Of a DNA stretch of 64,000 bases, positions 655-55,325 are shown piece by piece (position 1 is the first letter of the stretch; the number at the start of each line of letters is the position of its first letter). Source of the DNA: Candidatus Kaiserbacteria bacterium (GTDB lineage: Bacteria > Patescibacteriota > Minisyncoccia > Phycocordibacterales > UBA918). Below the pieces are notes generated by a model. It worked only from the letters and a program-made list of their open reading frames with translations. It was not told where the DNA came from and made no database searches. The stretch covers positions 704,317 through 768,316 of the forward strand of contig CP064968.1 in NCBI GenBank assembly GCA_016699245.1, written 5' to 3'. Position numbers and translations under genes: made by a program.

Positions 655-1311
655 CTATTCTTCTACGGGAGAAGGCAAAATTTCAGGCATTTTGGTAGTA
701 TTTTCTGGTATCTCAGTTAAATTTACTGGAAGATCTTTAGGTATTGCAGGGAGATTTTTTTGAATGGAAATGGTTTTAGCTAAAAAAGAATTCGTGCTCG
801 TTGATACCTCATCAAATGAAACAGCGGTGATTCTATCGCCCACTTGTATTTCATTAATAGCTATTTCCTTTTCAATATATGTCTTCGGTTGCTTTCCTTG
901 ATTACCATTGTTGACAAATTCCTTAATTTCTTTTTCGTATGTTACAGGTTCTTTGTTAGATATTAACAACAGTAATGTTTTAGCATCTGTACTTACGAGA
1001 ATACTTCTCTCAGTTGGATAGCCGGACTCAGGAGATAATTTTACATGTAATGTTGTATTTTCTACTGAAGTAACCTCACCAATAACAAAAAACTCTTTTT
1101 GATTTTGAAGTACTTCAATCACCTCTTCATGCTTCTCCTCTTCTGCAACTGCCGGAGGTGTACTTGAACTTATTGGAGCACTTATTGGAGTATTTTGATT
1201 TACTAATTCACTCGATTTTATTTTAGTAGTGTATACAAACAATAAAACTAAAATAATTAATGCACCAAGTGCAAGTACTCCTACAACTAGGGTAGTATTT
1301 TTAAATGACAT
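655..1311 (-). CDS. Hypothetical membrane-anchored protein (N-terminal TM helix, Ser/Pro/Glu-rich linker)
   Basis: 218-aa ORF 18 nt downstream of the 1330..1947 gene. Hydrophobic segment LVVGVLALGALIILVLLFVY. Confidence 0.55.
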   Translation of the reverse strand: MSFKNTTLVVGVLALGALIILVLLFVYTTKIKSSELVNQNTPISAPISSSTPPAVAEEEKHEEVIEVLQNQKEFFVIGEVTSVENTTLHVKLSPESGYPTERSILVSTDAKTLLLLISNKEPVTYEKEIKEFVNNGNQGKQPKTYIEKEIAINEIQVGDRITAVSFDEVSTSTNSFLAKTISIQKNLPAIPKDLPVNLTEIPENTTKMPEILPSPVEE

Positions 1312-1329
1312 AAAAATTACAACGACTAA

Positions 1330-1947
1330 CTATGCTTTTATGCAACTCATTACCCAATTATCCTCATTACTACCCGCAGTATAGGCCTGGTAGTACCCCG
1401 CTGGGCAACTAACATTAGGTGTATGACCATTGCAGGGGAAATTTGGATAAAGTGAACCATAAGTACTCCAAGCTCCACACTGTGTTCCAGGAAGAACAGC
1501 ACTAGTACTTACTGCATCATCAATCTGACTCACCCACTTCCCAGAACTTCGAATATACACGTCATTGGTGTAAATAGATGCTCTTGAGTTTTGCTTTTGG
1601 GCATTAGGATCCCATCCAGCACCATAGGTAGTAAGTGCCCAATCATCGGTCACTGAGTAATTTCGAACCGAACTAGTAATTGCACCGTACGTATTCAGTG
1701 CATTAACTATACTCGTAGAATTTGGGTCTATATAGTAACCTGAGTTATTATAATCGGAAAATGTTGTAGCCCCAATCGAACCTGCTTTCGACTGTGCAGT
1801 TGCACTCACATTAATTGGCGCGGCAACATTTGAAGTTGGCGGAGCACCTGTAGGAGCTGTCCACGCAAAGGTAACCTGCAATGCACCCATAGTAAAGGCA
1901 CCGAGTGCGATACCGAGGAAAACAAAAGAGAAGTTTTTGTATGACAT
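1330..1947 (-). CDS. Secreted/anchored Gly/Ser/Thr/Tyr-rich protein, paralog of 45332..46333
   Basis: 205-aa ORF with signal anchor FVFLGIALGAFTMGAL. Motif AWTAPTGAPPTSNVAAPINV...QSKAGSIGAT is shared with 45332..46333. Confidence 0.6.
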   Translation of the reverse strand: MSYKNFSFVFLGIALGAFTMGALQVTFAWTAPTGAPPTSNVAAPINVSATAQSKAGSIGATTFSDYNNSGYYIDPNSTSIVNALNTYGAITSSVRNYSVTDDWALTTYGAGWDPNAQKQNSRASIYTNDVYIRSSGKWVSQIDDAVSTSAVLPGTQCGAWSTYGSLYPNFPCNGHTPNVSCPAGYYQAYTAGSNEDNWVMSCIKA

Positions 1948-2137
1948 GAGAGTGATATATTATCTGTATAATTAAATTTATAAGTCTATGCTACCCTCCA
2001 CGGTGTAAGTAAGCAATGGGAATGGGTGGGATAAGTGGTTTGATTGAGACAAAATATTTGCGAGACGATGTGTAATTTGTACACACATTCAAAAACTTGC
2101 ACTCTGGTGCAGGTTTTTATCTTCATCTTTTATATAA

Positions 2138-2518
2138 TTATTGGGATTTCTTCAATGACTCTAGTTGGGCTTTTACTTCCTCTTCAGTGAGGACGGGGAC
2201 ACTCTCCTCTGGAGCAAGTGCTTCAAGTTGGGCTTTTACTTCCTCTTCAGTGAGCGCTGTTGGAATCTCATCTGGGGTAAGTGCTTCGAGTTGGGCTTTT
2301 ACTTCCTCTTCAGTGAGAAGATGACTATCTTTATTTGTATCGCTATCGCTTGGTTTTTCTACAGACACTTTTGGAATGACATAATTAAGTGTATAAAGGG
2401 AATAAGCTCCAAGAAGCGTAAGTACAGAGAGGAGTCCTACACACACATAGAGGAGCACTCGCATCATATTATTTTTTTGTATATCCATATGTGTATATAA
2501 TACTCCTTCTTCTAACAC
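2138..2518 (-). CDS. Small membrane-anchored protein with 3x 21-aa tandem repeat (LTEEEVKAQLEAL.P.E..)
   Basis: 126-aa ORF with N-terminal TM (LLYVCVGLLSVLTLLGAY). 63-nt DNA period at 2163/2226/2289. True start may be an internal Met. Confidence 0.5.
   Translation of the reverse strand: MLEEGVLYTHMDIQKNNMMRVLLYVCVGLLSVLTLLGAYSLYTLNYVIPKVSVEKPSDSDTNKDSHLLTEEEVKAQLEALTPDEIPTALTEEEVKAQLEALAPEESVPVLTEEEVKAQLESLKKSQ
2163..2351. repeat. Three tandem 63-nt in-frame coding repeats
   Basis: agttgggcttttacttcctcttcagtgag recurs at 2163, 2226 and 2289. Confidence 0.85.
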
Positions 2519-5486: not shown

Positions 5487-6260
5487 CTACAACTTGGTCA
5501 CAATCTCAGGGCCATTTTCCGTGATTGCAACAGTGTGCTCAAAATGCGCACTTCGTGAACCATCTACCGTAAAGACACTGTATCCGTCACCTTCGTCATC
5601 AAAAATCACTTCTTTACTTCCGATATTTACAATAGGCTCAATTGCAAAGACATTACCGACTTTAATAAGTGGCCCCCTTCCAGCTTTTCCAAAATTAGGA
5701 ATCTGTGGGTCTTCGTGTACTGCATGTCCCACTCCGTGCCCGCACAAGGCTTCCACAATACTGAATCCGCGTGAGTGTACGAAGGTCTCAATCGCGTGAC
5801 TAATGTCACCAATATGATTCCCAGGCTTTGCTTGCTTGATACCGAGCATAAGCGCTTCCTGCGTTGTTGTGATGAGTTTCATAGACTCTGCATCCGTCTT
5901 CCCTACAGGAATAGTAATACCCGAATCCACTATCATTCCTTGGTACCCAATCGTCATATCGAGGTTGATAATATCTCCCTCTTCGAGAATCTCATCTGCA
6001 CGAGGTACACCATGTTGCACGGTATTATTGACCGAGGTACACAACGCTGCAGGGTATGGATCCATTGCAAAAGTGGGTTGGTAGCCGAGCAGTACCGGTT
6101 CAGCACCATAGTCCTCGGCAAGTTTTAGGGCGTAGTCATTGATATCTTCGGTTGAAATGCCAGGCTTCACGTATGTAGCCAATTCCTTGAGTATCTGAGC
6201 GAGCACTTTTCCTCCCGCGCGAAGTCGCTCAATCTCTTCAGGGGTTTTAATAAGTGCCAT
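5487..6260 (-). CDS. map: Methionine aminopeptidase type I
   Basis: 257 aa with a MetAP fold, adjacent to adk as in spc-operon tails. Confidence 0.9.
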   Translation of the reverse strand: MALIKTPEEIERLRAGGKVLAQILKELATYVKPGISTEDINDYALKLAEDYGAEPVLLGYQPTFAMDPYPAALCTSVNNTVQHGVPRADEILEEGDIINLDMTIGYQGMIVDSGITIPVGKTDAESMKLITTTQEALMLGIKQAKPGNHIGDISHAIETFVHSRGFSIVEALCGHGVGHAVHEDPQIPNFGKAGRGPLIKVGNVFAIEPIVNIGSKEVIFDDEGDGYSVFTVDGSRSAHFEHTVAITENGPEIVTKL

Positions 6261-6978: not shown

Positions 6979-7548
6979 ATGAAGAAACACATCATTACTC
7001 TCGGAGGACTTCCCGGTAGTGGAAAATCCACGGTAAAACGCCTTTTAGCTGAGAAACTTGGATATGCCACCTTTTCGACAGGAGATTTTGTTCGTGAAAT
7101 GGCGCATGAGCGCAATCTCACTCTTGAAGAATTTAATGAACTCGTGAAGCGCGACAAAACGCTCGATCTACTGATCGATGAGCGTTTAAAGCGTATTGAG
7201 GCAGAAGAAGATTTTTATGTCATCGACTCACATCTCGCGTTTCACTTTGTACCGAGTGCATTCTCCGTATTTCTTTCAATATCTCCCGAATTGTCAGCAC
7301 AGCGTATTTTTAATGACGCCTCCTCTCCACTTCGCATAAAAAGTGGTGACACTATGGCATCACATGCGGAAGCATACACGCGCACACAAATGCGTATTCA
7401 GAATCACATTGAGCGTTATGCGAAACACTATGGCATCAATCCGTACAACGAGTCGCAGTATTGTTTAATCATTGATACTGAGGCACGCACACCAGAGGTT
7501 GTCGCAGATATTGTGCACACTGAATATCAGTCATGGCTCACTGGATAA
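6979..7548 (+). CDS. Cytidylate kinase-like P-loop NMP kinase (paralog 1)
   Basis: ITLGGLPGSGKST P-loop, ...IDSHLAFHFVP...FLSISPELSAQRIF resembles the Cmk lid region. Confidence 0.65.
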   Translation: MKKHIITLGGLPGSGKSTVKRLLAEKLGYATFSTGDFVREMAHERNLTLEEFNELVKRDKTLDLLIDERLKRIEAEEDFYVIDSHLAFHFVPSAFSVFLSISPELSAQRIFNDASSPLRIKSGDTMASHAEAYTRTQMRIQNHIERYAKHYGINPYNESQYCLIIDTEARTPEVVADIVHTEYQSWLTG

Positions 7549-7665
7549 ATTCATGAAATGTGAGCTCTGCTCACCAACACGTGCACTGCACGTGTATTTC
7601 ACTGGATAAATCCGGTGAAATGTGAGTTTCACTCACTGACACGTGCACTGCACGTGTATTTCACT
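7549..7665. repeat. Two tandem copies of a ~55-nt structured element (outer stem GGTGAAAT/ATTTCAC plus two internal hairpins), separated by ATAAAT(CC) spacers
   Basis: Copy 1 7549-7603 and copy 2 7611-7665. Each has hairpins GTGAG..CTCAC and ACACGTGCA-C-TGCACGTGT. A third related copy lies at 21390..21442. Confidence 0.8.
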
Positions 7666-7711
7666 GGATAAATATTTTTGAAGTGCAAAACGTATAGTGT
7701 ACACTTGCTGT

Positions 7712-8338
7712 ATGGAACGTCAGCACATTATTACACTTACCGGAAAGCCTGGGAGTGGAAAATCATCAACGGCCGACCGTGTCGCAGAAATGCTTGGGTA
7801 TACACGGTATTCTTCTGGTGAGTATGTACGTGCTATTACGCAGAAACATAAAATAACCTTGAGTGACTTTAATACCCGTGCTGAATCACATCCTGAAATG
7901 GATCAACAAATTGATATTGCGCTACGTAAACTTCGCGATCAGAGTGATATCGTCATTGATGCACGTCTTGGTTTCTACTGGATTCCCGAATCCTTCAAAG
8001 TATTCCTTGACCTCAATAGCGATGTAGCAATTGCACGTATCTTCAAAGATGCCAATTTTAATACTGGCCGCAGTGGCGCTGGTGAAGGAGGTGACGTAAT
8101 GAACGATGTGGCTGACCAGGTAGAAAAACGTATGCGGAGTGAGCGCATTCGTTTCAAAAAACTCTATGGCGTTAATCCCTATAGTATCGAACATTTTGAT
8201 CTCGTGATTGACACCGCGCAACACAGCCCACAAACCGTAGCACTTACTATTTTCGATACCTATAAAAGATGGTTGAAATCCTCAAGTTGGAAACAAGTAA
8301 TCAGCAGAGTACCTCTAGGATTCTCGTTTAAACACTGA
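7712..8338 (+). CDS. Cytidylate kinase-like P-loop NMP kinase (paralog 2)
   Basis: ORF 7697 has a GTG start. ATG at 7712 gives MERQHIITLTGKPGSGKSS, parallel to the paralog 1 N-terminus. Confidence 0.65.
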   Translation: MERQHIITLTGKPGSGKSSTADRVAEMLGYTRYSSGEYVRAITQKHKITLSDFNTRAESHPEMDQQIDIALRKLRDQSDIVIDARLGFYWIPESFKVFLDLNSDVAIARIFKDANFNTGRSGAGEGGDVMNDVADQVEKRMRSERIRFKKLYGVNPYSIEHFDLVIDTAQHSPQTVALTIFDTYKRWLKSSSWKQVISRVPLGFSFKH

Positions 8339-8569: not shown

Positions 8570-10010
8570 CTACGTCTCCTGCCCATACCCCTGCACTTCC
8601 ACCTTGACTGATTGATCAACAATCGGACAATCTATGGTGAATGTGGTGTTCACGCTGACGAAATATGATTGTGACCCAAGGCCTGTGGTTGACGGTACCC
8701 AGGGCATGCTATTTCTAGTGATGGCACAATTAATTTCCATGCCGGTACCCCATTCAACGAGTACGTCTTTCCCACTACTTGGCACCCTGCGTGGGTCTGC
8801 CTTGATGAAGGGTTCTGTATTCACATCAACTACTTTACTATCGAGGAGTCCTGGATACGGTGCGCAGGTGAGTGAGTACGTGGTGTCACTTGTGAGGGAT
8901 GAGGATAGTTCTGAGCCTGATGTCCCACCCCATGTATCTACACCACCAGTGACTTTTTGTTGGTGTACATCCACCTGTGGGTGTAATAGACCAATCGATA
9001 GTTGATTTTGTGTCGTATGCAATTGGAGAAGTGACCGTGAGGTTACCGGTTGGCTTTGGATGTACGGTGAAGCTTTTCTCCATGCAGTTGTTGGGTATTC
9101 CCGGAGGATCATCAGGTTCAACAATATCTCTGTTTGAATCGACACAATACTGAATATACAAGGTACCAGACCCACTCAGGTCTAGCGTAGCGATGTCTTG
9201 ACCAATTTCGTTTACGTCAAAACCTGCAGGGTGATCGGTATATGGAGTGATATCGATCCATGTACCAGTGACATTCCAGCGGTATGAGAAGTTGTTTTTA
9301 AAGGCATTGGGAGTAGGGATGACTCCTATATTTGTCATAGTCCCGTCTAAGACAACGATTTGTCCATCAAAGAATACGTTTCCTACTGAGGGGACGGTGG
9401 CGGTAAAGCCGATGGGTTTGAGGTCAGCATCATTTTGGATACAAGCGTAACCACTTCCTGTTACACCGTAAGGAGTACCATTTGTTGCTACTCCTGCAAA
9501 ACTTATCCACCCAACGACGGTAGACCCCCACGCATAGCCACTCCATGCACACCCTGTTGCAGTAACACCGTAATCAGGACCTGTGCCTGATAAACTAATC
9601 CACCCATCCCAACCTCCTGAATTAGCAGTTCCTCCCGCAAGCGCTTTAGCCCAACCTGTTACCACGCCAGTTGTACTATTAAAAAATGGTGCACAGGTAC
9701 CTGCACCTGAAGGACACCCCGACGTTTCATTGAAACTTATCCATCCTATATATTCACTCCATGCATATCCTGAAAGCGCACCATTGCTTGCAGCAGTAAC
9801 CCCATATGGTGACGTTCCGCATGATCCTGTATCAGTACAATTAAATGAAATCCATCCCATGGTTTCACTCCATGCATATCCTGAAAGATAATCAGATGCA
9901 CTTGATTCAGCATTCGGTACACGCATGCTGAATAAAGTTCCCACCACAATACCTATCAGCACGAGTGCATACGCGAGTAGATGCTTTGACTGTACTAAAT
10001 TGCTATTCAT
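8570..10010 (-). pseudogene. Large secreted surface protein with tandem GYAWSE.IGWISF repeats, split by a frameshift at a T5/A5 run (~8954-8958)
   Basis: ORFs 8886..10010 and 8570..9175 overlap in different frames. Joining them at ccaacaAAAAAgtcact gives a continuous, plausible ...GGCTPTK|VTGGVDTWGG... sequence. Signal peptide at the N-terminus. Confidence 0.55.
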
Positions 10011-14331: not shown

Positions 14332-14587
14332 TACGATTATGGGTTGGTTAATAACTTTTGGTAAACCAAAAGAAGCGTTATTTTGATTGGCGAAAAGTGG
14401 TCTCACCGAGAAGTGGTGACCGTTCTCTCCTTACGCAGTACTCAAAAAGACTCGCTTTCCGTTGCACTCAGTCGAGTGTACAATCGGCGCGTCTGTGTTT
14501 CCCTATGGGCTTAACACGAGAGTGTGCGAATATCGCTACGTGGGAGACTATACCAAAAATAGCCCTAGGAGTCAACATAAAATAAAA

Positions 14588-14625
14588 CTCCCTCCAGTAT
14601 GCAAAGCATACTGGAGGAGTTTTGA
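14588..14625 (-). terminator. Terminator/attenuator hairpin immediately after rplE
   Basis: ctccctccagtatgcaaagcatactggaggag with T-runs on both sides. About 250 nt of noncoding sequence then precede rpsZ. Confidence 0.55.
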
Positions 14626-14635
14626 TTTTGTGTGT

Positions 14636-44364: not shown

Positions 44365-44865
44365 TCAGAATTCTGATTTCAATTCCAACTCCTTCTCATC
44401 AAAATCCATTACTTCCTTCCACTCCATTTTTTCAATACTTTTTCCGTCCTCTTGAAACCATACCTTTCCACGAAGCTTCTCACCTTTGAGAGCTCGTGGA
44501 AGCCAGTACTCATCATCGGCCCACATCTTTTCAAACGGGATTTCAGTGTGCGTGAACCACTGCGGTCGCATCTCTTCGGTTTCAACTGGTTCTCCTTCCC
44601 ACCTATCGACAAAGAACGTATACACCTCAAGATGTTTCCCGTCTGCAAAAAGAAATTCAGTGATTGCGACTTTTTCAAGATCACTCTCTTTAACTACCAC
44701 CCCTGATTCTTCCTGTATTTCTCGCACCGTTGCAGTTTCGATTGACTCCTCATCTTCGACCTTGCCACCGTACCCATTCCAATTCCCCTCTCCGAACCCC
44801 CGTTTTTTCATTGCAAGACAAATCTCTCCATTCCTTTGCAAAAACGCGAGTGTGTATTTTTTCAT
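44365..44865 (-). CDS. Nudix hydrolase (MutT-like)
   Basis: Nudix box GGKVEDEESIETATVREIQEESG. Confidence 0.8.
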   Translation of the reverse strand: MKKYTLAFLQRNGEICLAMKKRGFGEGNWNGYGGKVEDEESIETATVREIQEESGVVVKESDLEKVAITEFLFADGKHLEVYTFFVDRWEGEPVETEEMRPQWFTHTEIPFEKMWADDEYWLPRALKGEKLRGKVWFQEDGKSIEKMEWKEVMDFDEKELELKSEF

Positions 44866-44870
44866 ACTTT

Positions 44871-44935
44871 CTTTTATTGTTTCAATGCCTCTATCCCCGG
44901 AAGAGTTTTATGTTCCAAAAAGTCGAGCGATCATT
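44871..44935. repeat. Remnant copy of the pgk 3' end (encodes LDFLEHKTLPGIEALKQ-stop). Direct repeat of 46511..46574.
   Basis: About 54 nt align with the pgk terminal codons, with 6-7 synonymous differences. Preceded by an in-frame stop, so non-coding. Confidence 0.8.
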
Positions 44936-44962: not shown

Positions 44963-45316
44963 TTATTTCGGTAACAGATCAATTATAATTTCTGTTTTTT
45001 GCGTTTTTGGTGTCAAATCATCGTTATATAAACTTGTCGTTGCTGCATTATTTTCGAGAGACGGTACTATCATAGGCATTCCTGATGTTGCTTGTACCTG
45101 CTCATCAGTTGTTGAGCCCAAAATTTCAAAATTTTGATAGTCTCCATCTATTTGCTCTTCTGTTTCATTTTGTGGTATGTCTGAAATTTGAATATCTTTG
45201 TTATTATACATGCCACGGTAATATGTATTAACAAAAAAGAGAATAGCATACAAAATAACGACAAGGACGATAATCCCTATCGATACTTTACACATAGTAC
45301 GCGTTGATTGGTTCAC
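44963..45316 (-). CDS. Hypothetical small membrane-anchored protein
   Basis: 117 aa, N-terminal TM IGIIVLVVILYAILFFV, 15 nt downstream of 45332..46333. Confidence 0.5.
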   Translation of the reverse strand: MNQSTRTMCKVSIGIIVLVVILYAILFFVNTYYRGMYNNKDIQISDIPQNETEEQIDGDYQNFEILGSTTDEQVQATSGMPMIVPSLENNAATTSLYNDDLTPKTQKTEIIIDLLPK

Positions 45317-45331
45317 AAAATAAAATTTAGG

Positions 45332-46333
45332 TTACTCTATGACATCTAATATAACAACACCGTCACGTCCTACGTCTGAATTTGTACATGTACCCACATA
45401 GCTAGCGGTTGTATGACATCCGCTACGGAACACACTACCTCCAGAACCATATCCGAATGGGGTTGTGCCGCCTGGATAAATGCCTGAGGATACAGCCCAC
45501 TGAATTGGACCTCTATTTCCAATTCCATACAAACTTGGACCACAAGCACCAGGACCATTTCCTGCCACAAATGAACCTGTAGCAACCCTGTTTGGTGATG
45601 AATATGCTGGCGTACCACCTCCTACTATTGCGCCGTCCACATGACCAGCAACAGTATAAATACCGCCCAGGTACGTATCCACGCCCCCGACGTATGCACC
45701 ACTCCCCCCTGAACACTCAAGTAATGTACCGCTCACACTTGAGGTAATCTTCGATGAAGATCCGGGATAACCACCAAGACCATCATCATCGCTTGGGTAT
45801 GTGTATATATAATAAGGTGCTCCACGGTCTGCGAGGACTCCAGTATTAACCACCGCACTACCCCTACCACCTCTTCCGACCTGAATATGAATTGTCTCTC
45901 CTGGTGTGAGCGAAATTGGATGTGAAAATACATACCCCCCTGAATGACCGGCAAAAACCGCGTTCACTACTCTCCACCCAACACCACTCCCTCCTCCACC
46001 TGCCATTGTCACCTCTGCACTAGTCACATTTGAAGGCACTACCCAATCTTGAGTAGACGTAAAGACGATTCGTCTTTTATTGATTGCTCTATTATCAACA
46101 TAATCCTTCGTCACCAGTGTCGTGCCTACATCTAAAGCAACTGTTGATGCGGTATTTATTTTACCTACTTTTGTTTGACTATCTGGCCCCACATTAATAG
46201 GCGCAGAAACATTTTGTGATGTTGGGTCTGGTGGTGGTGGCGTCCAAGGACCAGTCCATGCTGATACGACAGTAACGACAAGTGCTAAGGAGACAACGGT
46301 GGTTAGTGTATAGCGAAGGAGTGCTTTATTCAT
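45332..46333 (-). CDS. Secreted Gly-rich protein, paralog of 1330..1947
   Basis: ATG at 46333 (MNKALLRYTLTTVVSLALVVTVVSAWTGPWTPPPPDPTSQNVSAPINV...). The ORF extends to 46450. Confidence 0.6.
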   Translation of the reverse strand: MNKALLRYTLTTVVSLALVVTVVSAWTGPWTPPPPDPTSQNVSAPINVGPDSQTKVGKINTASTVALDVGTTLVTKDYVDNRAINKRRIVFTSTQDWVVPSNVTSAEVTMAGGGGSGVGWRVVNAVFAGHSGGYVFSHPISLTPGETIHIQVGRGGRGSAVVNTGVLADRGAPYYIYTYPSDDDGLGGYPGSSSKITSSVSGTLLECSGGSGAYVGGVDTYLGGIYTVAGHVDGAIVGGGTPAYSSPNRVATGSFVAGNGPGACGPSLYGIGNRGPIQWAVSSGIYPGGTTPFGYGSGGSVFRSGCHTTASYVGTCTNSDVGRDGVVILDVIE

Positions 46334-46511
46334 ATATGGTGGAGTGTGTCTAATGTTAATTAACCCAATATTACTGATAAGTGTAACCCCCCCCCCGCAC
46401 ATGGAGGCAATATGAAGAAGTGGGATAGCGCGTGTAACGGTACTAACCATTCTCTATATTACGCAGTTAATAATTGCTACACCCTCATTTTAATTTTCTT
46501 TTTTCTATTTT

Positions 46512-47639
46512 CTATTGTTTCAATGCTTCAATTCCTGGAAGAGTCTTGTGTTCCAAAAAGTCGAGCATCGCACCACCTGCGGTTGAAACAAATCCAAATG
46601 ATTCCGTTATACCGAGTGACTCAATAGCAGTCACGGTGTCACCTCCACCCACCACCGAGTATGCGTCGCTTGTAGCAATCATTTCGGCACAACGCTTCGT
46701 GGCATCGTCAAATCCTCCTTCGTAGTTACCAAGAGGCCCATTCCACACAATCGTTTCTGCTTCTCTGATAAAAGGTGCGAGTGCATCCACCGAGCGGGGA
46801 CCGACGTCGAGAATTTTCTCGTCAGATTGAACGTGCTCGACAAGCACCTCACGCTTACCATGCTCTCCACCAACCACGACATCGACGGGCAAAATAATAC
46901 TTTCTCGTTCGAGAAGCAAATTCCCCTTCATATCAACAGAAGAAAGAAGTGACTCCCCCACAGGGAAACCTTTCCCTTTCAAAAAATCATTCGCGAGAGC
47001 ACCCCCAATGAATGTGTGTGTGTAGTCTCTAGAATATTCCTCAACAAGTGGTTCCTTTGTCTCAAATTTAGCACCCCCAAGAATAAAAAGTGACGGACTG
47101 TGGGGCTTGAGCACTTTCGAAAGTTCGGTGTATTCATCTAAAAATGAGACGCCTGCAAAACTTGGAATGTATTTTGGGATACCAACGATTGATGCGTGTG
47201 GTCGATGAGACACCGCAAACGCATCGTTCACATAATACTCACCGTATGAAGCAAGCATTGCTCCAAAAGCGGCATCATTTTTTTCTTCTCCTTCGTGTGA
47301 ACGTAAATTCTCGAGAAGTACCACTTCCCCTTCCTCCATTTTTGCTAGTGCATCTGTGACCACCGACCCCAACAACGCAGGTACATACGTAATAGGGACA
47401 TATTCCTGAAGCGCTTGTGCGAGCACCTCAAGTGTCGTTTTAGGATTTCTGCCAAGATGGGTGAGAAGTACCACTTTCGCCCCTCCGAGCATAAGATGTG
47501 TGATAGTAGGCAATGCACGAACAATTCTAAAGTCACTTTGTATCACTCCATCAATCATAGGAACATCGAAAGGAACCCTCACCAATACATGTTTCCCGCG
47601 AACGTCAGATATCTCCATGACCGAATGTATTTTTTTCAT
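46512..47639 (-). CDS. pgk: Phosphoglycerate kinase
   Basis: PGK N- and C-domain motifs. C-terminus ...MLDFLEHKTLPGIEALKQ. Confidence 0.9.
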   Translation of the reverse strand: MKKIHSVMEISDVRGKHVLVRVPFDVPMIDGVIQSDFRIVRALPTITHLMLGGAKVVLLTHLGRNPKTTLEVLAQALQEYVPITYVPALLGSVVTDALAKMEEGEVVLLENLRSHEGEEKNDAAFGAMLASYGEYYVNDAFAVSHRPHASIVGIPKYIPSFAGVSFLDEYTELSKVLKPHSPSLFILGGAKFETKEPLVEEYSRDYTHTFIGGALANDFLKGKGFPVGESLLSSVDMKGNLLLERESIILPVDVVVGGEHGKREVLVEHVQSDEKILDVGPRSVDALAPFIREAETIVWNGPLGNYEGGFDDATKRCAEMIATSDAYSVVGGGDTVTAIESLGITESFGFVSTAGGAMLDFLEHKTLPGIEALKQ

Positions 47640-48498: not shown

Positions 48499-49914
48499 CT
48501 ATATCTCTTCCCAGAATACCGTCACATATTGATCTCCGGTAAGAGGAAAACCCGGTGGTGGTGAATACAGCAAGTTCCCATCATAATTGATATTACGCGT
48601 TGCGTAGCCTGTATTATCGGTATATGCAAATCCGTAGCGCAAATTAGTGGCAATCATCCCCCAAAGTGTTAGGGTCGAACGATCGTCATAGGGGGAACAG
48701 TCTGACTCATAATAAAGTCTTCCTACCAAGCCATTCTGCGCTATGAGCGCAGCATCAATTCGCAAATCATTTTCACTCACCATCCCCGCAAGTACGTTTC
48801 CTTGTGCAATAAGACCAATGGTGTCTGTACCATCATATTTCGTATACAGTACATCATTATTAATGATGATGTTTTTTCGTGTTGCTGCATTGTCTGGCAA
48901 GACCGCAGATACTATATTGAGACGAGCACTATTAATTTGTCCATTCACAAATACATGATCCTCAAAAAAGAGAATGCCATTACTCGGAAAGGCGTAATTA
49001 CCAAGCAATACTTGGTTTTGAACACTCCATGTTCCCCATCCTGATTGTCCGGCACTGTTATTACATCCCCCTGGTGCATTCGTCATACTGGTCACGCGAT
49101 ACAAATCGAATGTATCATTTGTTTTCAACACAACATGATATCCGAGCGAGCCCGAGCCCGGTCTATAAAACCCACTTGCCTGCGCATTTGATTTTAATTG
49201 TGACAAATTTGAGGTAATCCCCCCAAAATCAATTGAGGGTACGGGGAATGTACGTCCAATTTCAAATACATCAGCTCTTGAGGGGACGGCGGTCGGTGGT
49301 AGTGGGTCAGTGGGAAAATCGTGAGTATGAACTCCATACTCATTTACTCCGGAGTGATCGGGGTCATCATAGGTAGCTACCCCACTCGTAACCAAGTTAT
49401 GTGCAACACCATCAAATCGCAATCCTTGATTTGAATGAATAGGCCCAAACACTTCCGTTCCCGCTCCAAATCGCATCATGCTATTTGCAACAACCGCATA
49501 TTTTGCAATTGATGGTTTTGCAAACTGGACTCTGAGTGAACGTTGCACTCCCTCCAAGGTCCTCCCTGTTGAAGTAACAATCACCACTGTTGATCCAAGT
49601 GGTGGTGGTACGATTTGGAGTGAGAAATCTCCAATAATGTTGCCGTCTTTATCACGAAACGAATGAACATACGGGCCCGAAGTTGCAGTCCCATCCATAA
49701 AATCAAGAGGTGCGTGTGCAAGGTGCCAACGATAATAATCAATACCCGCCTCTGCTATTTGAATTGCTTGCTCGCGATCGGACATTCGTTGTGTTGCAAT
49801 AACATCGGTAATGCCCCATCGTACCAAACCACCTAAAAGTACCACACCGATTGAAGCACACACGAGTACCAGTATGAGAACATATCCCTTTGTTTTGTAG
49901 GTATGCATGCTCAT
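48499..49914 (-). CDS. Pilus-associated protein with pilin-like hydrophobic N-terminus (PilX-like minor pilin candidate)
   Basis: 471 aa. N-terminus KGYVLILVLVCASIGVVLLGGLV. Overlaps the next pilin gene by 4 nt (ATGA). Confidence 0.45.
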   Translation of the reverse strand: MSMHTYKTKGYVLILVLVCASIGVVLLGGLVRWGITDVIATQRMSDREQAIQIAEAGIDYYRWHLAHAPLDFMDGTATSGPYVHSFRDKDGNIIGDFSLQIVPPPLGSTVVIVTSTGRTLEGVQRSLRVQFAKPSIAKYAVVANSMMRFGAGTEVFGPIHSNQGLRFDGVAHNLVTSGVATYDDPDHSGVNEYGVHTHDFPTDPLPPTAVPSRADVFEIGRTFPVPSIDFGGITSNLSQLKSNAQASGFYRPGSGSLGYHVVLKTNDTFDLYRVTSMTNAPGGCNNSAGQSGWGTWSVQNQVLLGNYAFPSNGILFFEDHVFVNGQINSARLNIVSAVLPDNAATRKNIIINNDVLYTKYDGTDTIGLIAQGNVLAGMVSENDLRIDAALIAQNGLVGRLYYESDCSPYDDRSTLTLWGMIATNLRYGFAYTDNTGYATRNINYDGNLLYSPPPGFPLTGDQYVTVFWEEI

Positions 49915-50534
49915 AGATTGTCTTTTAGATTACGAAGATTAACCTGTGTTGTATAGATGTCTGGTGTCGAAGAGGCTGAAGAACTCGTATCGGCCACTAT
50001 ATAGATTTTGACAAGTCGTACTACCGAGATGTTAAAGGGTTCAACGAGTGGTGTACTCGTACCCGCATATGTCTCATTGTAGTATGAGAAAAGTGGAGTG
50101 GTAGTACTATTTTTGACTGCGTGCACGAGCTCCGTACGCATTTCGTTGGCGACGTTATATACCAAAGGGCTTCCTGTTGCATTGATCACCCCACGCATGA
50201 GCACACCGCTCTGGAGAAAATATCGTATACGCTCCTTTTCACTATCACTGTCTATGTCGCTATAGAATATGAGTGACGATGTCCCTGTCTGCTCGAGTGC
50301 ATACGCACCGACACTCGATGGGGATGCTGTACGTAGTTCAGCAGTCATCGTCTTTATCGCGCGACGCCCTTCTCCTGTCTGTGAAAGCGATGCAGATACG
50401 CTTCGATTCACACTAAACATGTCTATGAGAAGCTTTGTGGCTATAAGACCAATGAGTACCGCGATACCAAGTACCACAAGTATTTCAACAAGGGAAAAGC
50501 CTAGATTTTTGCGAGATGATTGTATAGTGCTCAT
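49911..50534 (-). CDS. Type IV pilin / pseudopilin (prepilin-type N-terminal cleavage motif G|FSLVE)
   Basis: MSTIQSSRKNLGFSLVEILVVLGIAVLIGLIA. Confidence 0.75.
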   Translation of the reverse strand: MSTIQSSRKNLGFSLVEILVVLGIAVLIGLIATKLLIDMFSVNRSVSASLSQTGEGRRAIKTMTAELRTASPSSVGAYALEQTGTSSLIFYSDIDSDSEKERIRYFLQSGVLMRGVINATGSPLVYNVANEMRTELVHAVKNSTTTPLFSYYNETYAGTSTPLVEPFNISVVRLVKIYIVADTSSSASSTPDIYTTQVNLRNLKDNL

Positions 50535-52327
50535 GGTAAAAGAAGTACTTCCTCGTGTGTCCAGTTATTACTCACCGTAATCGACTTGGTATACACCTGG
50601 TACCCTGATGAAGTAACCGTCAATGTATACGTGCCGGCACCAATCCCCGTAAACAACACCTGTCCTGGTGGAGTACAATTTGATGTAAACGTAAATGCCA
50701 CATCAGATACCGTTGGTGTCCAGGTACTACTTGCAGTAGCAAGGAATAGTTTATATCGGATATAGCGGTCTCCTGTATGTACTGCATGAATATCCGTGTT
50801 CGTGACATCATAATATGTTCCCAGAGTCCCATCGGGTCCTTTAAAATCCCATGTGGTCATATCATTGTTGGTAGCAACTTGTATGCGGACGCTATCTGCT
50901 CCCGTCTCTGGTGGCTGTGATTGTGGTTGCAAGAGAATCTGCTTAAATGCGCTACTCGTTCCAGTATCAAATGTAGATGATGTTAGTGTACCATTCCCTG
51001 CAAAGGCACCGAAGGTCTCTTTTAATTGTACTTGCCCTACGGGATTTATATTTTCAATATCGGTGTCATCTTCAAAATATTCGGTTGCATTGGTATACAT
51101 ACTCTGCCCATCTCCCCCCGACCAGTCAGTTTGTGACATATACCCTCGTCCTGTTATATTGGTAACATCATACCCGCTCTTTTGAAGACGTACGGTCGCA
51201 CCCGAAATAGGGAGGCCTGTACCCACATCCTTTACGGTTACTAAGAGTGTGCGTGGATTTTTGGGGACGACGATAAGCGATATGTTTTGGTGTGTATCGG
51301 GATTAAGTGTAAATGGCAATGATGGAATGGTTCCTCCTAAGTCATAGGTTACGTCAGCCACATCAAGATGATACGTGTCCCATTCAAGATCTGGAACTGT
51401 TTCTAATCCTCCACCATTCGTTGAATACGCTTGTGAAAATTTTATAACATCCGGTGGTGTTGTGCCGATAATTTTTTCTCCGGTAAGACTAAAATCTATA
51501 TTGCCGACAGGCGTACAGGTATCGGTCATACTCGTCACCTCAAATTCACTCACCGTATCAATAGAAAAACTCACCTGCGACAGTTGCTGGGACACTACCG
51601 TTGCGTGAGGTTTTGAGGGATTTGGATTTGCAACGTCACCAATCATGTACGTGCGCTCGCTCGAATACCCTGGCTTCGATACGGAAATCTCGTATGCATT
51701 GATGCCTGGTGGTGCATCAATAATTTGCACATACCCATCATTATTTGTGGTATCGTCAATAACAATAGAGGTCGTGGCGACATTGTTTTCGATATGCACA
51801 TCAGCCCCCTGAATCGCCTGCCCCGCTGCATCAAACACGTGTATAAAGAGAGCACCGTTTGTTGAAGATGTTTCGAGACCGCGTGGGCCAATATGCGATG
51901 TAAAGGACATTGGCGCAAAGTCCTTACAAAACGCACAATCGATAGTAAGTTCAGCAAGTCGATAGTCAGATGGTGAAAGATCATTTTTCGTACTACTTCC
52001 AATCTGTCCATCAAAAGGATCGTCAATATTACGTATTACTGTGGTAACCGTAAATTCAACACCATCACGTGTAAGTGTCTGGATGTGTGGAATACTACCA
52101 TTCGGAAGACCTCCTTGAATACCAACATCCTCATAGGAAAGGTTTCGTATGATTTCCATTTGTTCATTTGCGAGAGCAGTTGCAGTAACTTTATTTTGTG
52201 ACACGAGGGCTACTCGAACAACAGTCGAAAAAGTTTCGTACAAAGCGAGGGCAATCATGAGAAAAATCGTTGTCGCAACAATCACTTCAATGAGTGTAAT
52301 TCCTGCACATGTGCGTTTATTGTTCAT
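50531..52327 (-). CDS. Large pilin-like protein (prepilin-type N-terminus G|ITLIEV), 598 aa
   Basis: ATG at 52327 gives the leader MNNKRTCAG|ITLIEVIVATTIFLMIALALY. The longer ORF to 52366 overlaps pilC. Confidence 0.65.
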   Translation of the reverse strand: MNNKRTCAGITLIEVIVATTIFLMIALALYETFSTVVRVALVSQNKVTATALANEQMEIIRNLSYEDVGIQGGLPNGSIPHIQTLTRDGVEFTVTTVIRNIDDPFDGQIGSSTKNDLSPSDYRLAELTIDCAFCKDFAPMSFTSHIGPRGLETSSTNGALFIHVFDAAGQAIQGADVHIENNVATTSIVIDDTTNNDGYVQIIDAPPGINAYEISVSKPGYSSERTYMIGDVANPNPSKPHATVVSQQLSQVSFSIDTVSEFEVTSMTDTCTPVGNIDFSLTGEKIIGTTPPDVIKFSQAYSTNGGGLETVPDLEWDTYHLDVADVTYDLGGTIPSLPFTLNPDTHQNISLIVVPKNPRTLLVTVKDVGTGLPISGATVRLQKSGYDVTNITGRGYMSQTDWSGGDGQSMYTNATEYFEDDTDIENINPVGQVQLKETFGAFAGNGTLTSSTFDTGTSSAFKQILLQPQSQPPETGADSVRIQVATNNDMTTWDFKGPDGTLGTYYDVTNTDIHAVHTGDRYIRYKLFLATASSTWTPTVSDVAFTFTSNCTPPGQVLFTGIGAGTYTLTVTSSGYQVYTKSITVSNNWTHEEVLLLP

Positions 52328-52328
52328 A

Positions 52329-53558
52329 CTAACCAATACTATCTGAGAGCGAGTAGATAGGTGCAATCATCGCAAGGGCGAAGAATCCAACACCAGCACC
52401 AATGACCACCATGAGTATTGGTTCGATGATGGTTGAGAGGTCTTTGGTCTTTTGTTCAACTTCAGTTTCATAGAAAACAGCAATTTCTGTAAGCATTTGT
52501 GAGATTTGACCCGTTTCCTCTCCAACAGAGATCATCTCACCTACCAGAATAGGATAAATCTCCTCGTGGGCAATAAATGTCTCAGAAAGTGGACTCCCTT
52601 TCTCTACATGGAGCGCTGCCTCTTTCAAAACACGCTTGTAGTACACATTTTGGAGTACATCTTCGGTTATATTAATGGCGCTAATTACATCAACACCCGA
52701 TGAAAGAAGGGATGAGAGTGTGCGTGCGGTATAGGCGGAATTGGTTTGCTTCACTATGTTTCCAATTACCGGTAAGTGGATAAAAATAAAATGGAGACCT
52801 TTCCTTCCAAAAGTAGTCTTACTGATACCAATGATACTCCCCACAAAAGTAACAAAGCCGAGGATTGCCATTGCGCTGTGATTCGTGACAAAATCACTCA
52901 CGCTGATAACAAATTGTGTGCTACTCGGGAGTTCAGTGCCAGACTTTGTGAAGGTCTCCGTAAGGGTGGGCACTACAAAAATCATCATGAGAACACCAAT
53001 AATACACATGACCGAAAGAACAATGGTGGGATACATCATTGCTCCTTTGATTTTTTTCTTGAGATTTGATGACCGTTCGAGTTGCATCGCGATAGTTTGC
53101 AGTGCCGGCACCATTCCTCCACTCTCCTCACCAGCACGCACCATCGCTACATACAAACGTGAAAAGGTTCCGGGAAATGCTTTGAGCGCTTCATGAAACG
53201 GGTCACCTTTGTTGATACTTTCGCGAACATGTACCATTACCCCTTTCAAGCGAGGATTTTTCGATTGACGTTCAATCACTGAAAGAGCGCGTGAAAGCGG
53301 GAGTCCGGCTTTAAGCATCGAGGATAGGTTGCGTGTTGTCATCACCAGCTCGTCTGCTTTGACGCGACTGAGGTAATAGTTGATACGCTCTATGTTAAGG
53401 AAGCGCGCGAGCGAAAATTTCCCCTGTTCCTGTATATTCGTGACCACATGACCACTCGTACGCGCGATTTCATACACCGCATATTTATCAACCGCCTCAA
53501 CAGTCTCGGTTATTTTTTCTCCGTCTTTTGTGGTGCCTGTATACGTGAATTTTTCCAT
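52329..53558 (-). CDS. pilC: Type IV pilus assembly / T2SS platform protein PilC/GspF family
   Basis: 409 aa, GspF-domain pattern, three TM segments. Confidence 0.8.
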   Translation of the reverse strand: MEKFTYTGTTKDGEKITETVEAVDKYAVYEIARTSGHVVTNIQEQGKFSLARFLNIERINYYLSRVKADELVMTTRNLSSMLKAGLPLSRALSVIERQSKNPRLKGVMVHVRESINKGDPFHEALKAFPGTFSRLYVAMVRAGEESGGMVPALQTIAMQLERSSNLKKKIKGAMMYPTIVLSVMCIIGVLMMIFVVPTLTETFTKSGTELPSSTQFVISVSDFVTNHSAMAILGFVTFVGSIIGISKTTFGRKGLHFIFIHLPVIGNIVKQTNSAYTARTLSSLLSSGVDVISAINITEDVLQNVYYKRVLKEAALHVEKGSPLSETFIAHEEIYPILVGEMISVGEETGQISQMLTEIAVFYETEVEQKTKDLSTIIEPILMVVIGAGVGFFALAMIAPIYSLSDSIG

Positions 53559-53567
53559 AGGAACACA

Positions 53568-55325
53568 TTACTCAGAAATAACACGAAGTACTTCTTCAAT
53601 ACTTGTTTGTCCCAGTGCCGCTTTGTAGATACCGTCCTCGAGCATGGTGAGCATGTCCTCTTTACGCGCCTGTGCTTCAATAGCGTCTGCGGTACCTGAG
53701 GCAAGGACGATCTCTTTGATGCTCGGTGACACGTGGAGCACTTCATGAATGCCAATACGCCCCTTGTAGCCATCATCCTCTGGACCTTCCTTTGCCCGAT
53801 AAAATGGAATACTGTTCCATGTTGCGTTACTTTTCACTACTCCTTCTTTCTTGAGTGCATCAAGAATTCGGTCCATGTCGACGTGTTTTTCAATCTGTGC
53901 ACGCTCAGTGGCGCTCAGTGTGTAGGATTCTTTAGAGTCGGTAAGACGGCGTACGAGGCGTTGCCCCACCACCACATGCAGTGTGGATACGAGAAGGAAT
54001 GTCTCTACCCCCATATCGACAAGACGCGCTACTGTCGCTGAAGCGGAATTGGTGTGCACCGTGGCAAGTACGGAGTGTCCTGTGAGGGCCGCATTAATGG
54101 CGAGTGATGCCGTTTCTTGGTCACGAATTTCTCCCACCATAATGACGTCGGGATCTTGGCGCATAAGTGAGCGCAGTCCATTTGCAAATGAGAATCCAAT
54201 TTCAGGCTTTACTTGCGTCTGATTCACTCGTGCCATCTGGTATTCGACAGGATCTTCGATGGTACAAATGTTTACCTCGGGTGTGTTTAAAATATCGAGC
54301 ACAGTATAGAGCGTCGTGGTCTTACCAGAACCTGTAGGGCCCGTAACCAAAATGATTCCCGTTGTTTGCTTTGTGGCAGCGTAAATACGCTCAAGCGCCT
54401 GACCGTGAAATCCGAGTCCTTCAAGGGTATAGCCTGAACGCCCTTCGCGGAGAAGGCGCATAACGAGCTTTTCTCCAAAGAAAATAGGGAGGATAGAAAC
54501 ACGAAACGACACTTTTTGTCCATCCATCTCCATTTTAAAGCGTCCGTCTTGCGGTAAACGCTTTTCGTCGAGTTTCAAATTTGAAAGGACCTTAATACGC
54601 GCAGAAATGGTAGGTGCCGCATGCTTGGGGAGAGACATTGCATCATGGAGGATACCGTCAATACGATAGCGAACGAGGAGTTCATTCTCCATTGGTTCAA
54701 TATGGATATCAGATGCTGATTGAATAATAGCGTGATGAAGGAGTGTATCCACGATACGCACAACGGGCAAATCTTCTGCCATCTTTTTCAAGTCTTCTTC
54801 CGATGCTTCTTCCCCGCCATCTTCAGCAAGAATACGAAGCGCGGAGGACTCCTTTGCAATCAAGTCACCAAATTCATCCTTGAGGGTTTTTTGATATTGC
54901 TGAAGTGCATACTTCATTGATTCGGTGTCGGTGAGACGTGGAAGAATTTTGAGTCCCACCTTTTTCTTTACAAAGTCGATTGCCGGAAGGTCGGCAGTAT
55001 CGAGCATAGCAACCTCAAGAACATCATCAGCCTTGCGATAGGCAATAATATTATGATTTCGGGCCACAGGTTCAGGGATGAGCGAAAGGACTTCAAAAGG
55101 GATTTTTATGCCGTTGAGTGCCAAAAAGGGTACGCCGAGTACATATGATTCCACGCGTCGCAAATCATCCTCGGACATTGTTCCACTTGAAATGAGTGCC
55201 TCAGCAAGAGTACGCTTTTCTTCTATTGCTACTTTTTCGGCAGCATCAATATCCTTTCGGGTTACCAAACCCGAATCCATCACAAAACGCTTGAGTTGTG
55301 TATCTTGTATACGCATTGCCTCCAA
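53568..55325 (-). CDS. pilB: Type IV pilus assembly ATPase PilB/GspE family
   Basis: Walker A LVTGPTGSGKTTTL, GspE N-domain, tetracysteine-like region. Confidence 0.85.
   Translation of the reverse strand: MEAMRIQDTQLKRFVMDSGLVTRKDIDAAEKVAIEEKRTLAEALISSGTMSEDDLRRVESYVLGVPFLALNGIKIPFEVLSLIPEPVARNHNIIAYRKADDVLEVAMLDTADLPAIDFVKKKVGLKILPRLTDTESMKYALQQYQKTLKDEFGDLIAKESSALRILAEDGGEEASEEDLKKMAEDLPVVRIVDTLLHHAIIQSASDIHIEPMENELLVRYRIDGILHDAMSLPKHAAPTISARIKVLSNLKLDEKRLPQDGRFKMEMDGQKVSFRVSILPIFFGEKLVMRLLREGRSGYTLEGLGFHGQALERIYAATKQTTGIILVTGPTGSGKTTTLYTVLDILNTPEVNICTIEDPVEYQMARVNQTQVKPEIGFSFANGLRSLMRQDPDVIMVGEIRDQETASLAINAALTGHSVLATVHTNSASATVARLVDMGVETFLLVSTLHVVVGQRLVRRLTDSKESYTLSATERAQIEKHVDMDRILDALKKEGVVKSNATWNSIPFYRAKEGPEDDGYKGRIGIHEVLHVSPSIKEIVLASGTADAIEAQARKEDMLTMLEDGIYKAALGQTSIEEVLRVISE

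Follow-up and report, generated by a model that had tools for sequence, protein, structure and literature searches.

The 64,000 nt of Candidatus Kaiserbacteria DNA analyzed here (contig CP064968.1, positions 704,317 to 768,316 of the forward strand; hereafter the window) contain two loci at which a gene for a large secreted protein is closely followed by a gene for a small membrane protein. They raise the question of whether these are two copies of one duplicated cassette, as the first-pass annotation of the sequence proposed, and of what the exported products might do. The large secreted genes are called A1 and A2 and their small downstream partners B1 and B2 throughout. The answer proposed here is that A1 and A2 belong to a very large, unnamed and essentially Patescibacteria-restricted family of Sec-exported modular proteins that are probably fibers. 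The overall picture that is favored, of phase-variable, head-swapping surface fibers used for attachment, is likewise considered probable, and within it we infer adhesion, docking and phase variation from sequence.

All four open reading frames (ORFs) lie on the minus strand, at the places and with the short gaps originally proposed. A1 (1330..1947), a secreted fiber-like protein of 205 aa, is followed after 18 nt by B1 (655..1311), a single-pass membrane protein of 218 aa. A2 (45332..46333), also a secreted fiber-like protein (333 aa), is followed after 15 nt by the small single-pass membrane protein B2 (44963..45316; 117 aa when read from a GTG start and 110 aa when read from the ATG at 45295). 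Both partners carry one N-terminal hydrophobic segment, in agreement with their description as membrane-anchored. A2 is 100% identical to the database protein IPH92_03785 (P0007); a longer A2 reading frame extends to 46450 and crosses the promoter and poly-G region (see later), and a real start there is unlikely. The term Gly/Ser-rich, given to both secreted proteins, suits A2 (G 16.8%, S 10.2%) and is less apt for A1 (S 12.2%, A 12.2%, G 8.3%). The surroundings are different at the two loci, A1 having an RNase J-like beta-CASP gene and rplT as neighbors, and A2 having pgk, tpiA and a NUDIX gene. The view of a paralogous two-gene module did not survive closer comparison: homology is confined to the promoter-proximal region of the A genes, the signal peptide and about 32 mature N-terminal residues, the C-terminal domains of A1 and A2 are unrelated, and the partners come from unrelated families.

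What the two secreted proteins do share is a signal peptide (aa 1-28 of A1, nt 1864-1947; aa 1-25 of A2, nt 46259-46333) and the conserved segment that follows it, here termed the N-module (aa 29-58 of A1, nt 1774-1863; aa 26-59 of A2, nt 46157-46258), all on the minus strand. A direct BLASTP comparison of A1 with A2 aligns just 21 aa (TSNVAAPINVSATAQSKAGSI / SQNVSAPINVGPDSQTKVGKI, E 5e-4). The post-signal motif noted in the first reading is nonetheless real, and significant, as judged with a hidden Markov model (HMM) built from 76 N-termini, all from other genomes, and run against the 850 six-frame ORFs of the window. It matched A1 (E 1e-20, 69 bits) and A2 (E 8.6e-13, 44 bits), and no third ORF up to E = 10; a regular-expression scan of the window for the motif again returned A1 and A2 only. 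The consensus of the module, which is Pro-rich, is W-T-x-P-T-x-x-P-P-x-x-N-V-x-A-P-I-N-V-G/S-x-x-x-Q-x-K-x-G.

The residues around the end of the signal peptide are strongly constrained. In a set of 255 non-redundant members, Ala occupies position -1 in 85%, Val or Ala occupies position -3 in 76% and Trp occupies position +1 in 95%, this Trp being found at median residue 28. In A1 the cleavage context is TFA followed by Trp at residue 29, and in A2 it is VSA followed by Trp at residue 26. By its residues, this is a canonical signal-peptidase-I context (V/A-x-A, then Trp), and the mature protein would therefore most likely start with the Trp of the conserved W-T-x-P module. Neither A1 nor A2 matches the N-methylation motif of class III signals (PF07963, E<=1), a motif that the genuine pilins of the window do match. 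Four Cys are present in the C-terminal part of A1 (positions 157, 172, 181 and 202) and four in that of A2, where they are nearly invariant within its family; these conserved cysteines are of the extracytoplasmic type.

The family defined by the first ~60 residues comprises at least 8,431 clusters (50% identity, E<=1e-3), 2,171 of them at E<=1e-10. These figures come from an exhaustive search of 1.84 billion representative proteins with a profile of 10 N-termini, which was used instead of a word-indexed homolog search with the N-module profile that gave short fragments only. The profile match was N-terminal in all of the hits listed (150/150), and the proteins range from ~75 to 1,389 aa, with unrelated C-termini. 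Among GTDB species representatives, one back-translated DNA pattern found 75 loci, nearly all in Patescibacteria. The lineages include Kaiser-, Taylor-, Nomura-, Falkow-, Wolfe-, Vogel-, Giovannoni-, Wildermuth- and Nealsonbacteria, and further loci are labeled 'Paceibacterota' and 'Saccharibacteria'. The few with other taxon labels, given here as recorded, are on short contigs of metagenome-assembled genomes or on a sub-megabase chromosome. Pfam, NCBIfam and PHROGs hold no model for the N-module, and literature searches on the motif strings and on PF21722 (see below) returned nothing relevant; within the libraries and literature searched, the N-module family, its neighbor families and the homopolymer polymorphism described later appear to be undescribed.

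The far end of A2 is a different matter, and the earlier statement that no recognizable domain is present was wrong for this protein. Its Gly-rich head (aa ~83-333, nt 45335-46087, minus strand), which is preceded by a 'TKDYVD' collar, matches the Pfam family Gly_rich_2 (PF21722) at E 5e-5, with a score of 23.8 bits against a gathering cut-off of 24.3, i.e., 0.5 bit short. The identical protein P0007 and most of the 50–63% identical homologs are listed with PF21722, and A2 is counted as a member on the near-cut-off score, the listed homologs and the agreement of fold; A1 has no match to PF21722. A total of 105 homologs of A2 were found. Over ~245 aa, the head shares 50–63% identity with the C-terminal regions of Bdellovibrio, Pseudomonas, Trinickia and Cupriavidus proteins; many of these proteins begin with a prepilin N-terminus (PF07963, PF04917) and are named PilV-family or PulG-like at source. 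Three homologs from the candidate phyla radiation (CPR), P0008, P0015 and P0111, share the signal and module N-terminus of A2 instead. Structure prediction, which had been suggested as a check, gave a confident model for A2: the AlphaFold2 (AF2) model has a predicted local distance difference test score (pLDDT) of 86.7 overall and above 94 across the head. A Foldseek search with the head retrieved the tail tip of mycobacteriophage Bxb1 (9d93_Qb), the fiber of cyanophage Pam3 (7ypx/7yfw) and the TG (TNF-like plus glycine-rich) domain of ALK/LTK. It also matched 204 viral models, mostly tail fibers and the ends of giant-virus collagen-like fibers. For the phage and giant-virus fibers, the matches have probability 1.00 and E-values of 1e-5 to 5e-10. 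PHROG tail-fiber matches were found at the 'TKxYVD' collar of a paralog, P0004, and PDB sequence searches with the A2-family profile gave nothing meaningful. The head of A2 is a bona fide fiber-tip and pilin-tip domain, and as a domain it is already known.

A1 is built on a similar plan but with other parts. After the N-module it has one NNSGYYIDPNSTS repeat (pattern 'F.D.NN.GYY.DP.STS'), a unit that longer members of the family carry many times over, then a SIYTNDVYIRSSGKWVSQI motif ('S.YTNDVY.RS.GKW.SQ') and lastly a C-terminal knob containing the four Cys. Shaft elements seen in the family include 'YYxDP' repeats as well as the 'TKDYVD' collar. Three relatives, P0003, P0004 and P0005, have an A1-type N-terminus (70–88% identical over ~55 aa) that continues into three unrelated C-termini, and the family design can therefore be described as a constant N-module, an optional shaft and an interchangeable head. 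In a distant Paceibacterota genome (L016, 2729-5676), three A genes and a B1-type gene lie in a row. The C-terminal part of one of these A genes is linked by BLASTP to that of P0005 from the relative in Kaiserbacteria, and a second one starts with a signal peptide resembling that of A2 (MNKELLRY...), so heads and N-termini appear to be shuffled across lineages in this case.

Comparison with contigs of close relatives, in which the flanking genes are 92–96% identical to those of the window, provides a view of how such replacements look at a single locus. The A1 island of the window reads beta-CASP, repeat transmembrane (TM) protein, A1, B1, rplT, and that of a relative reads beta-CASP RNase, repeat TM protein, A(P0005), a 197-aa B1-type protein, an AAA_14/DUF4143 ATPase, A(P0004), rplT. 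The ATPase gene and the second A gene, P0004 (L078 2800-4005, L086 2-565), are absent from the window. Nucleotide similarity between window and relative is 75% in the 5' region of the A gene and is gone after about codon 50, and B1 is only 28% identical to the 197-aa protein at the same position. In a 96%-identical relative, P0003 (L076, 5649-6796) is the only gene of a 1.0-kb insert located behind rplE. A ~61-nt duplication of a terminator hairpin region flanks this insert, and the corresponding site in the window is uninterrupted (14569-14633). For the large genes, the proposal of a family of surface or secreted cargo cassettes is thus well founded, given a huge secreted family, C-termini that differ in close strains and one flanked insertion.

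The A2-B2 locus has a boundary signature of its own. The att-like duplication reported around one of the copies was confirmed, and consists of a 72-nt direct repeat, 82% identical, that brackets A2-B2. Its left copy (46495..46566) is the functional 3' end of pgk (46512..47639). The right copy (44857..44928) is an orphan pgk 3' end encoding LDFLEHKTLPGIEALKQ and a stop codon, and abuts the start of the NUDIX gene at 44865. All six sense-codon differences between the two pgk ends are synonymous (third positions), and the stop codon also differs, from which it follows that both evolved as functional gene ends before they were joined, presumably in different genomes. This suggests that the A2-B2 cassette was imported together with a foreign pgk end. 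The insert is 1.6 kb long and carries only A2 and B2, as the L076 insert carries only an A gene, and no integrase or recombinase was found in either. An integrase-bearing element was considered, with flanking target duplications being present, and was set aside as neither insert carries an integrase; the cassettes may plausibly have come in by one-sided homologous recombination following the uptake of DNA. Around A1-B1 there are no flanking repeats beyond chance-level matches of 15–22 nt, the window has no tRNA genes that could be integration targets, and a search of metagenomes for an 'empty' pgk-NUDIX junction, using a back-translated NUDIX 5' pattern, gave 0 matches, and a look-up of the exact NUDIX protein found no record.

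The conserved part of the A genes begins upstream of the coding sequence. Alignment of A1, P0003, P0004 and P0005 shows a block of ~250 nt, extending from ~87 nt upstream of the ATG to just past the Q-x-K codons, with sharp edges beyond which similarity is absent in both directions. Included in it are an upstream element, a poly-G tract and a core promoter, and the sequence encoding the signal peptide and N-module. Ahead of A1 (1948..2035, minus strand) it reads CTTATCCCACCCATTCCCATTGC...GTGGAGGG(interrupted G tract)TAGCA and then a sigma70-like TAGACT-18-GATAAT, the promoter-like site being at 1988..1959. Ahead of A2 the block was placed by alignment at 46334..46429 (minus strand), where the upstream element has diverged and the tract is a G10 homopolymer (46387..46396, minus strand; C10 on the plus strand). 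It lies ~55 nt upstream of the A2 start, is the sole G/C run of 8 or more in the window, and is a candidate slipped-strand phase-variation tract.

Length polymorphism of this tract was seen for paralogs in close relatives, not in the window's own population. L076 has G7 (5947-5953) and L077 has G10, this being the sole difference in 1,274 nt, and a tract-length difference of 3 nt is unlikely to be an assembly miscall. The tract of P0005 is G9, G10 and G11 across L078, L079 and L080 (L080 23-33), and the G11 contig has zero mismatches outside the tract against either the G9 or the G10 contig. For P0004 it is G7 in three samples. Across the GTDB loci, 24 G/C runs of at least 7 were counted, and 6 of these are located between -200 and +60 relative to A starts, intervals that account for 4.4% of the sequence. 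Tract length could plausibly affect transcription; functional phase variation by poly-G is given a little under even chances.

The small partners proved to be less constant than the genes they follow. They had been presented as paralogs of one another, and this was ruled out by BLASTP (best E 3.6) and by profile-profile comparison of the two partner families (hhalign, 12% probability). In B1, a TM segment at the N-terminus precedes a beta-rich ectodomain, which shows the pattern 'G.V..V....L.V ... GD.I.V.S.E......F.A..I.I'. The protein has no match in Pfam, NCBIfam, PHROG or the PDB, including a search of the PDB with the B1-family profile. An iterative HMM of the ectodomain gathered 16 proteins of 169–219 aa, of which 15 are encoded within 110 nt of an A gene, whether downstream, upstream or divergent. 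In the GTDB loci, 11 of the 12 members of the B1 family are directly adjacent to an A gene, in 10/75 loci (odds ratio 36, p 1.5e-6), and the family accompanies A genes of several unrelated C-terminal types. B2 has no significant Pfam, NCBIfam or PHROG family. Over its C-terminal 53 aa, it shares 42% identity (E 8e-7) with a TM protein of 105 aa whose gene lies two genes upstream of P0008, which among the CPR homologs is the one closest to A2. More generally, a small single-TM ORF follows the A gene in 21 of 69 GTDB cases, against 16% of all ORFs (odds ratio 2.7, p 0.001). A 167-aa gene downstream of P0111 is B1-like by eye but was missed by both the B1 and B2 HMMs, and was not counted. The expectation that partners co-occur with A genes in other genomes was borne out, to a modest extent, for the B1 type, found beside A genes in the loci just described, and for B2 through its homolog near P0008, but most A genes have no such partner. 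B1 and B2 might be accessory membrane proteins for the anchoring, retention or folding of the exported fiber, not a duplicated partner gene; such an anchor or assembly role is possible but doubtful.

The commonest neighbor of A genes is another family, whose members have an N-terminal signal or TM segment followed by SGYAWSENIGWISFN repeats, and which is referred to here as the GYAWSENIGWISF repeat family. It is present in 27/75 GTDB loci and directly adjacent to the A gene in 19 (p 9e-7). The window has a member of this 'SGYAWSE(N/T)(I/M)GWISFN' repeat family 7 kb from A1 (8886..10010, minus strand), with no significant Pfam, NCBIfam or PHROG family. This protein is 374 aa long and has an N-terminal TM or signal segment and repeats of the form 'SGYAWSE(T/Y)(M/I)GWISFN'. 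Immediately upstream of A1 is a gene for a small TM protein (2138..2518, minus strand) with three tandem LTEEEVKAQLEAL units, which correspond to 63-nt tandem DNA repeats at 2160-2348. The number of units varies, being three in the window and two in a close relative (L078/L079). Counterparts of this protein sit upstream of A genes in relatives, and there is a weak homolog beside P0008 (E 9e-5). Farther along, between the P-loop kinase-like genes 6979..7548 and 7697..8338, a 58-nt sequence occurs twice in tandem (7554-7611 and 7616-7673); the copies are 90% identical, and hairpin-like symmetry is seen within both.

Taken together, a secreted, modular surface protein with a binding head is the best supported element of the reading and is considered likely; the chances of a role in host attachment are put at about even. 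The variable head would bind a surface ligand, most plausibly on the host cell of the episymbiont, and the constant mature N-terminus would dock the fiber on a conserved envelope component, for which the GYAWSENIGWISF repeat proteins, the B1-type membrane proteins and the type IV pilus are candidates. Slippage in the poly-G tract may alter the spacing between the upstream element and the core promoter, and so turn individual fiber genes on or off. At its most extended, the proposal is that the N-module is the docking signal of a Patescibacteria-specific fiber system with a GYAWSENIGWISF/B1-type base, maybe coupled to the pilus, in which cassette-swapped and poly-G-switched heads set the host range. 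In this full form the idea is speculative, and rather unlikely to hold in every part.

Several observations weigh against this reading of A1 and A2 as switchable attachment fibers. The AF2 model of A1 is poor (pLDDT 58.5, from an alignment of 34 sequences) and was left out of the fold search, and A1 has only a handful of homologs. The N-module is predicted to have no regular structure, at low to moderate confidence (AF2 pLDDT 44–73). The tract of A1 is interrupted, in the window and in L084, and so A1 itself would not switch. Homopolymer lengths were taken from metagenome assemblies, which are prone to miscalls, and the poly-G tract is placed directly ahead of the predicted -35 hexamer and not between the hexamers. 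B-type partners are absent from most A genes, and from the L076 cassette, and so cannot be obligatory. The neighbor statistics given above were obtained with a crude, greedy ORF caller and from loci that are phylogenetically non-independent.

Of the other explanations, the one that survives best, and is still improbable, is that the A proteins are accessory or tip proteins of the type IV pilus, with the N-module attaching the fiber to the pilus (e.g., to a minor-pilin tip complex) in place of a covalently joined pilin N-terminus. The fusion of the same head, at 50–63% identity, to prepilin-type N-termini in other phyla is what this would predict. In the window, a pilus operon on the same strand (48499..55325, minus strand), whose last gene is 2.1 kb upstream of A2, encodes PilB, PilC and three pilin-like proteins (Pfam T2SSE, T2SSF, N_methyl; the pilin-like genes at 48499..52366), the order being pilus operon, tpiA, pgk, A2, B2. 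In the GTDB loci, there are A genes directly upstream of pilB in L030 (B1type-A-PilB-PilC), L050 and L075, and between pilins in L035 (PilB-PilC-pilin-x-x-A-W-pilin-pilin). However, type IV pilus genes are found within 4 kb in only 8/75 A loci, A1 and most members of the family are located among housekeeping genes, and the A proteins have neither a class III signal nor the N_methyl motif. As the class III signal was tested for and is absent, they are not regarded as type IV pilins. The pilus operon of the window also includes an unusually large pilin-like protein of 611 aa (50531-52366, minus strand), with a prepilin N_methyl segment and CarboxypepD_reg/prealbumin-like domains.

A polymorphic toxin-immunity system, in which the N-terminus serves for export, the variable C-terminus is a toxin and the downstream membrane protein confers immunity, would account for a constant N-terminus joined to a C-terminus that switches abruptly between strains, for a small and equally divergent gene 15–18 nt downstream, and for the exchange of the A C-terminus together with its partner seen at this locus in a close relative, where B1 and its counterpart are 28% identical. 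It is nevertheless most improbable. Pfam, NCBIfam and fold searches found no toxin domain in A1 or A2 (the fold search covering the A2 head only), and the A2 head is a fiber-tip and pilin-tip domain. One B1 family serves several unrelated C-terminal types, and does so from variable positions, and a small partner is lacking from many A genes, among them that of the mobile L076 cassette. Features of T5, T6 or T7 secretion, or of Rhs or LXG trafficking, were not found. With no toxin or trafficking domain, and with a partner family that is shared across heads and often absent, A1 and A2 are not recognizable polymorphic toxins.

About equally improbable is a new polymerizing appendage, in which the mature N-terminus would act as a donor strand or connector between A proteins, as in chaperone-usher pili. 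A conserved segment with which the mature protein begins, the common occurrence of 2–3 A paralogs in tandem in the GTDB loci and the abundance of the family would all fit. The wide range of sizes, combined with unrelated C-termini, is atypical of the subunits of a single polymer, no usher, chaperone or sortase-like gene recurs nearby, and the module is Pro-rich and predicted to be without regular structure. The last alternative, that the genes are prophage tail-fiber remnants or phage-delivered cargo with no cellular role, has in its favor a head fold and 'TKDYVD' collar typical of phage fibers and mobile cassettes flanked by duplicated target sequence, but is considered extremely unlikely on grounds of genomic context and signal peptide, since both window copies lie among housekeeping genes with no phage structural, integrase or lysis genes there, every member has a Sec signal peptide that a virion fiber does not need, the N-module has no PHROG match, and the same N-terminal design is kept across many Patescibacteria lineages.

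The favored reading, in which A1 and A2 are exported attachment fibers with exchangeable heads, bears on how the episymbionts of the CPR/Patescibacteria find and hold their hosts. This is an open question, for which only type IV pili have been implicated so far; in the general CPR literature, pili were the only attachment structures mentioned. With at least 8,431 clusters, the A family would be a second and very abundant candidate for host attachment, and it carries the same kind of receptor-binding heads as phages and the pilins of predatory Bdellovibrio. Head swapping, cassette insertion and homopolymer-length polymorphism are hallmarks of host-range or antigenic variation. The A proteins are good candidates for host recognition because a constant front is joined to swappable, virus-fiber-like tips behind a G run of variable length. 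If the poly-G switching is real, we know of no earlier case of phase variation in the CPR/Patescibacteria radiation.

Comparison with known systems places the A proteins between several of them. In its distal part, A2 is close to the Gly-rich fibers of phages and giant viruses (PF21722, Bxb1, Pam3), with which it shares the head fold, the Pfam match and a 'TKDYVD'-type collar, and with which the family shares the logic of joining an invariant end for attachment, through a shaft, to a receptor-binding tip that varies. The differences are the cleavable Sec signal of A1 and A2, their housekeeping surroundings and an N-module without a library match. The adenovirus fiber is seated in the penton base by its conserved N-terminal tail, which is followed by a repeat shaft and a trimeric knob. 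Its design of a short conserved tail, repeat shaft and variable distal knob is the same, and the ALK/LTK domain among the fold matches of the A2 head combines TNF-like and glycine-rich parts, but this is an analogy only, with no sequence relationship, and trimerization and N-module docking are hypothetical for A proteins. Polymorphic toxins (CDI, Rhs, LXG) resemble the A genes in that the N-terminus is constant, the C-terminus changes abruptly and a small variable gene follows directly downstream, and in the joint replacement of C-terminal part and partner between strains. They differ in that the A proteins have adhesin or fiber heads in place of toxin and trafficking domains, and a partner family that is shared across heads and is often missing.

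For the manner of variation, the nearest parallels are the homopolymer contingency genes, such as the Vlp lipoproteins of Mycoplasma hyorhinis, the poly-C promoters of Bordetella fim and the poly-G promoters of Neisseria. As in these, tract length varies between A-gene sequences that are otherwise identical, but the A tract, which may likewise bring about on/off switching, is upstream of the predicted -35 and not within the spacer. The Vlp system offers the additional parallel of a multigene family in a reduced-genome, host-dependent bacterium, with a near-identical 5' block and divergent 3' parts; the A signal differs in having no lipobox Cys, and the variable parts are folded fiber heads and not simple repeats. 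Finally, the A proteins can be compared with the PilV-like minor pilins and adhesins of Bdellovibrio, Pseudomonas and Trinickia, which we take to be relatives of PilV, the tip adhesin of the R64 thin pilus. The C-termini of R64 PilV are switched by a shufflon, whereas variation of the A genes occurs by cassette replacement or insertion and through poly-G, not through a site-specific invertase. A2 differs also in having an A-x-A site followed by Trp and the WTxP...PINV...QxKxG module, and no class III signal. Common to both is a variable recognition head carried on a constant N-terminal assembly module.

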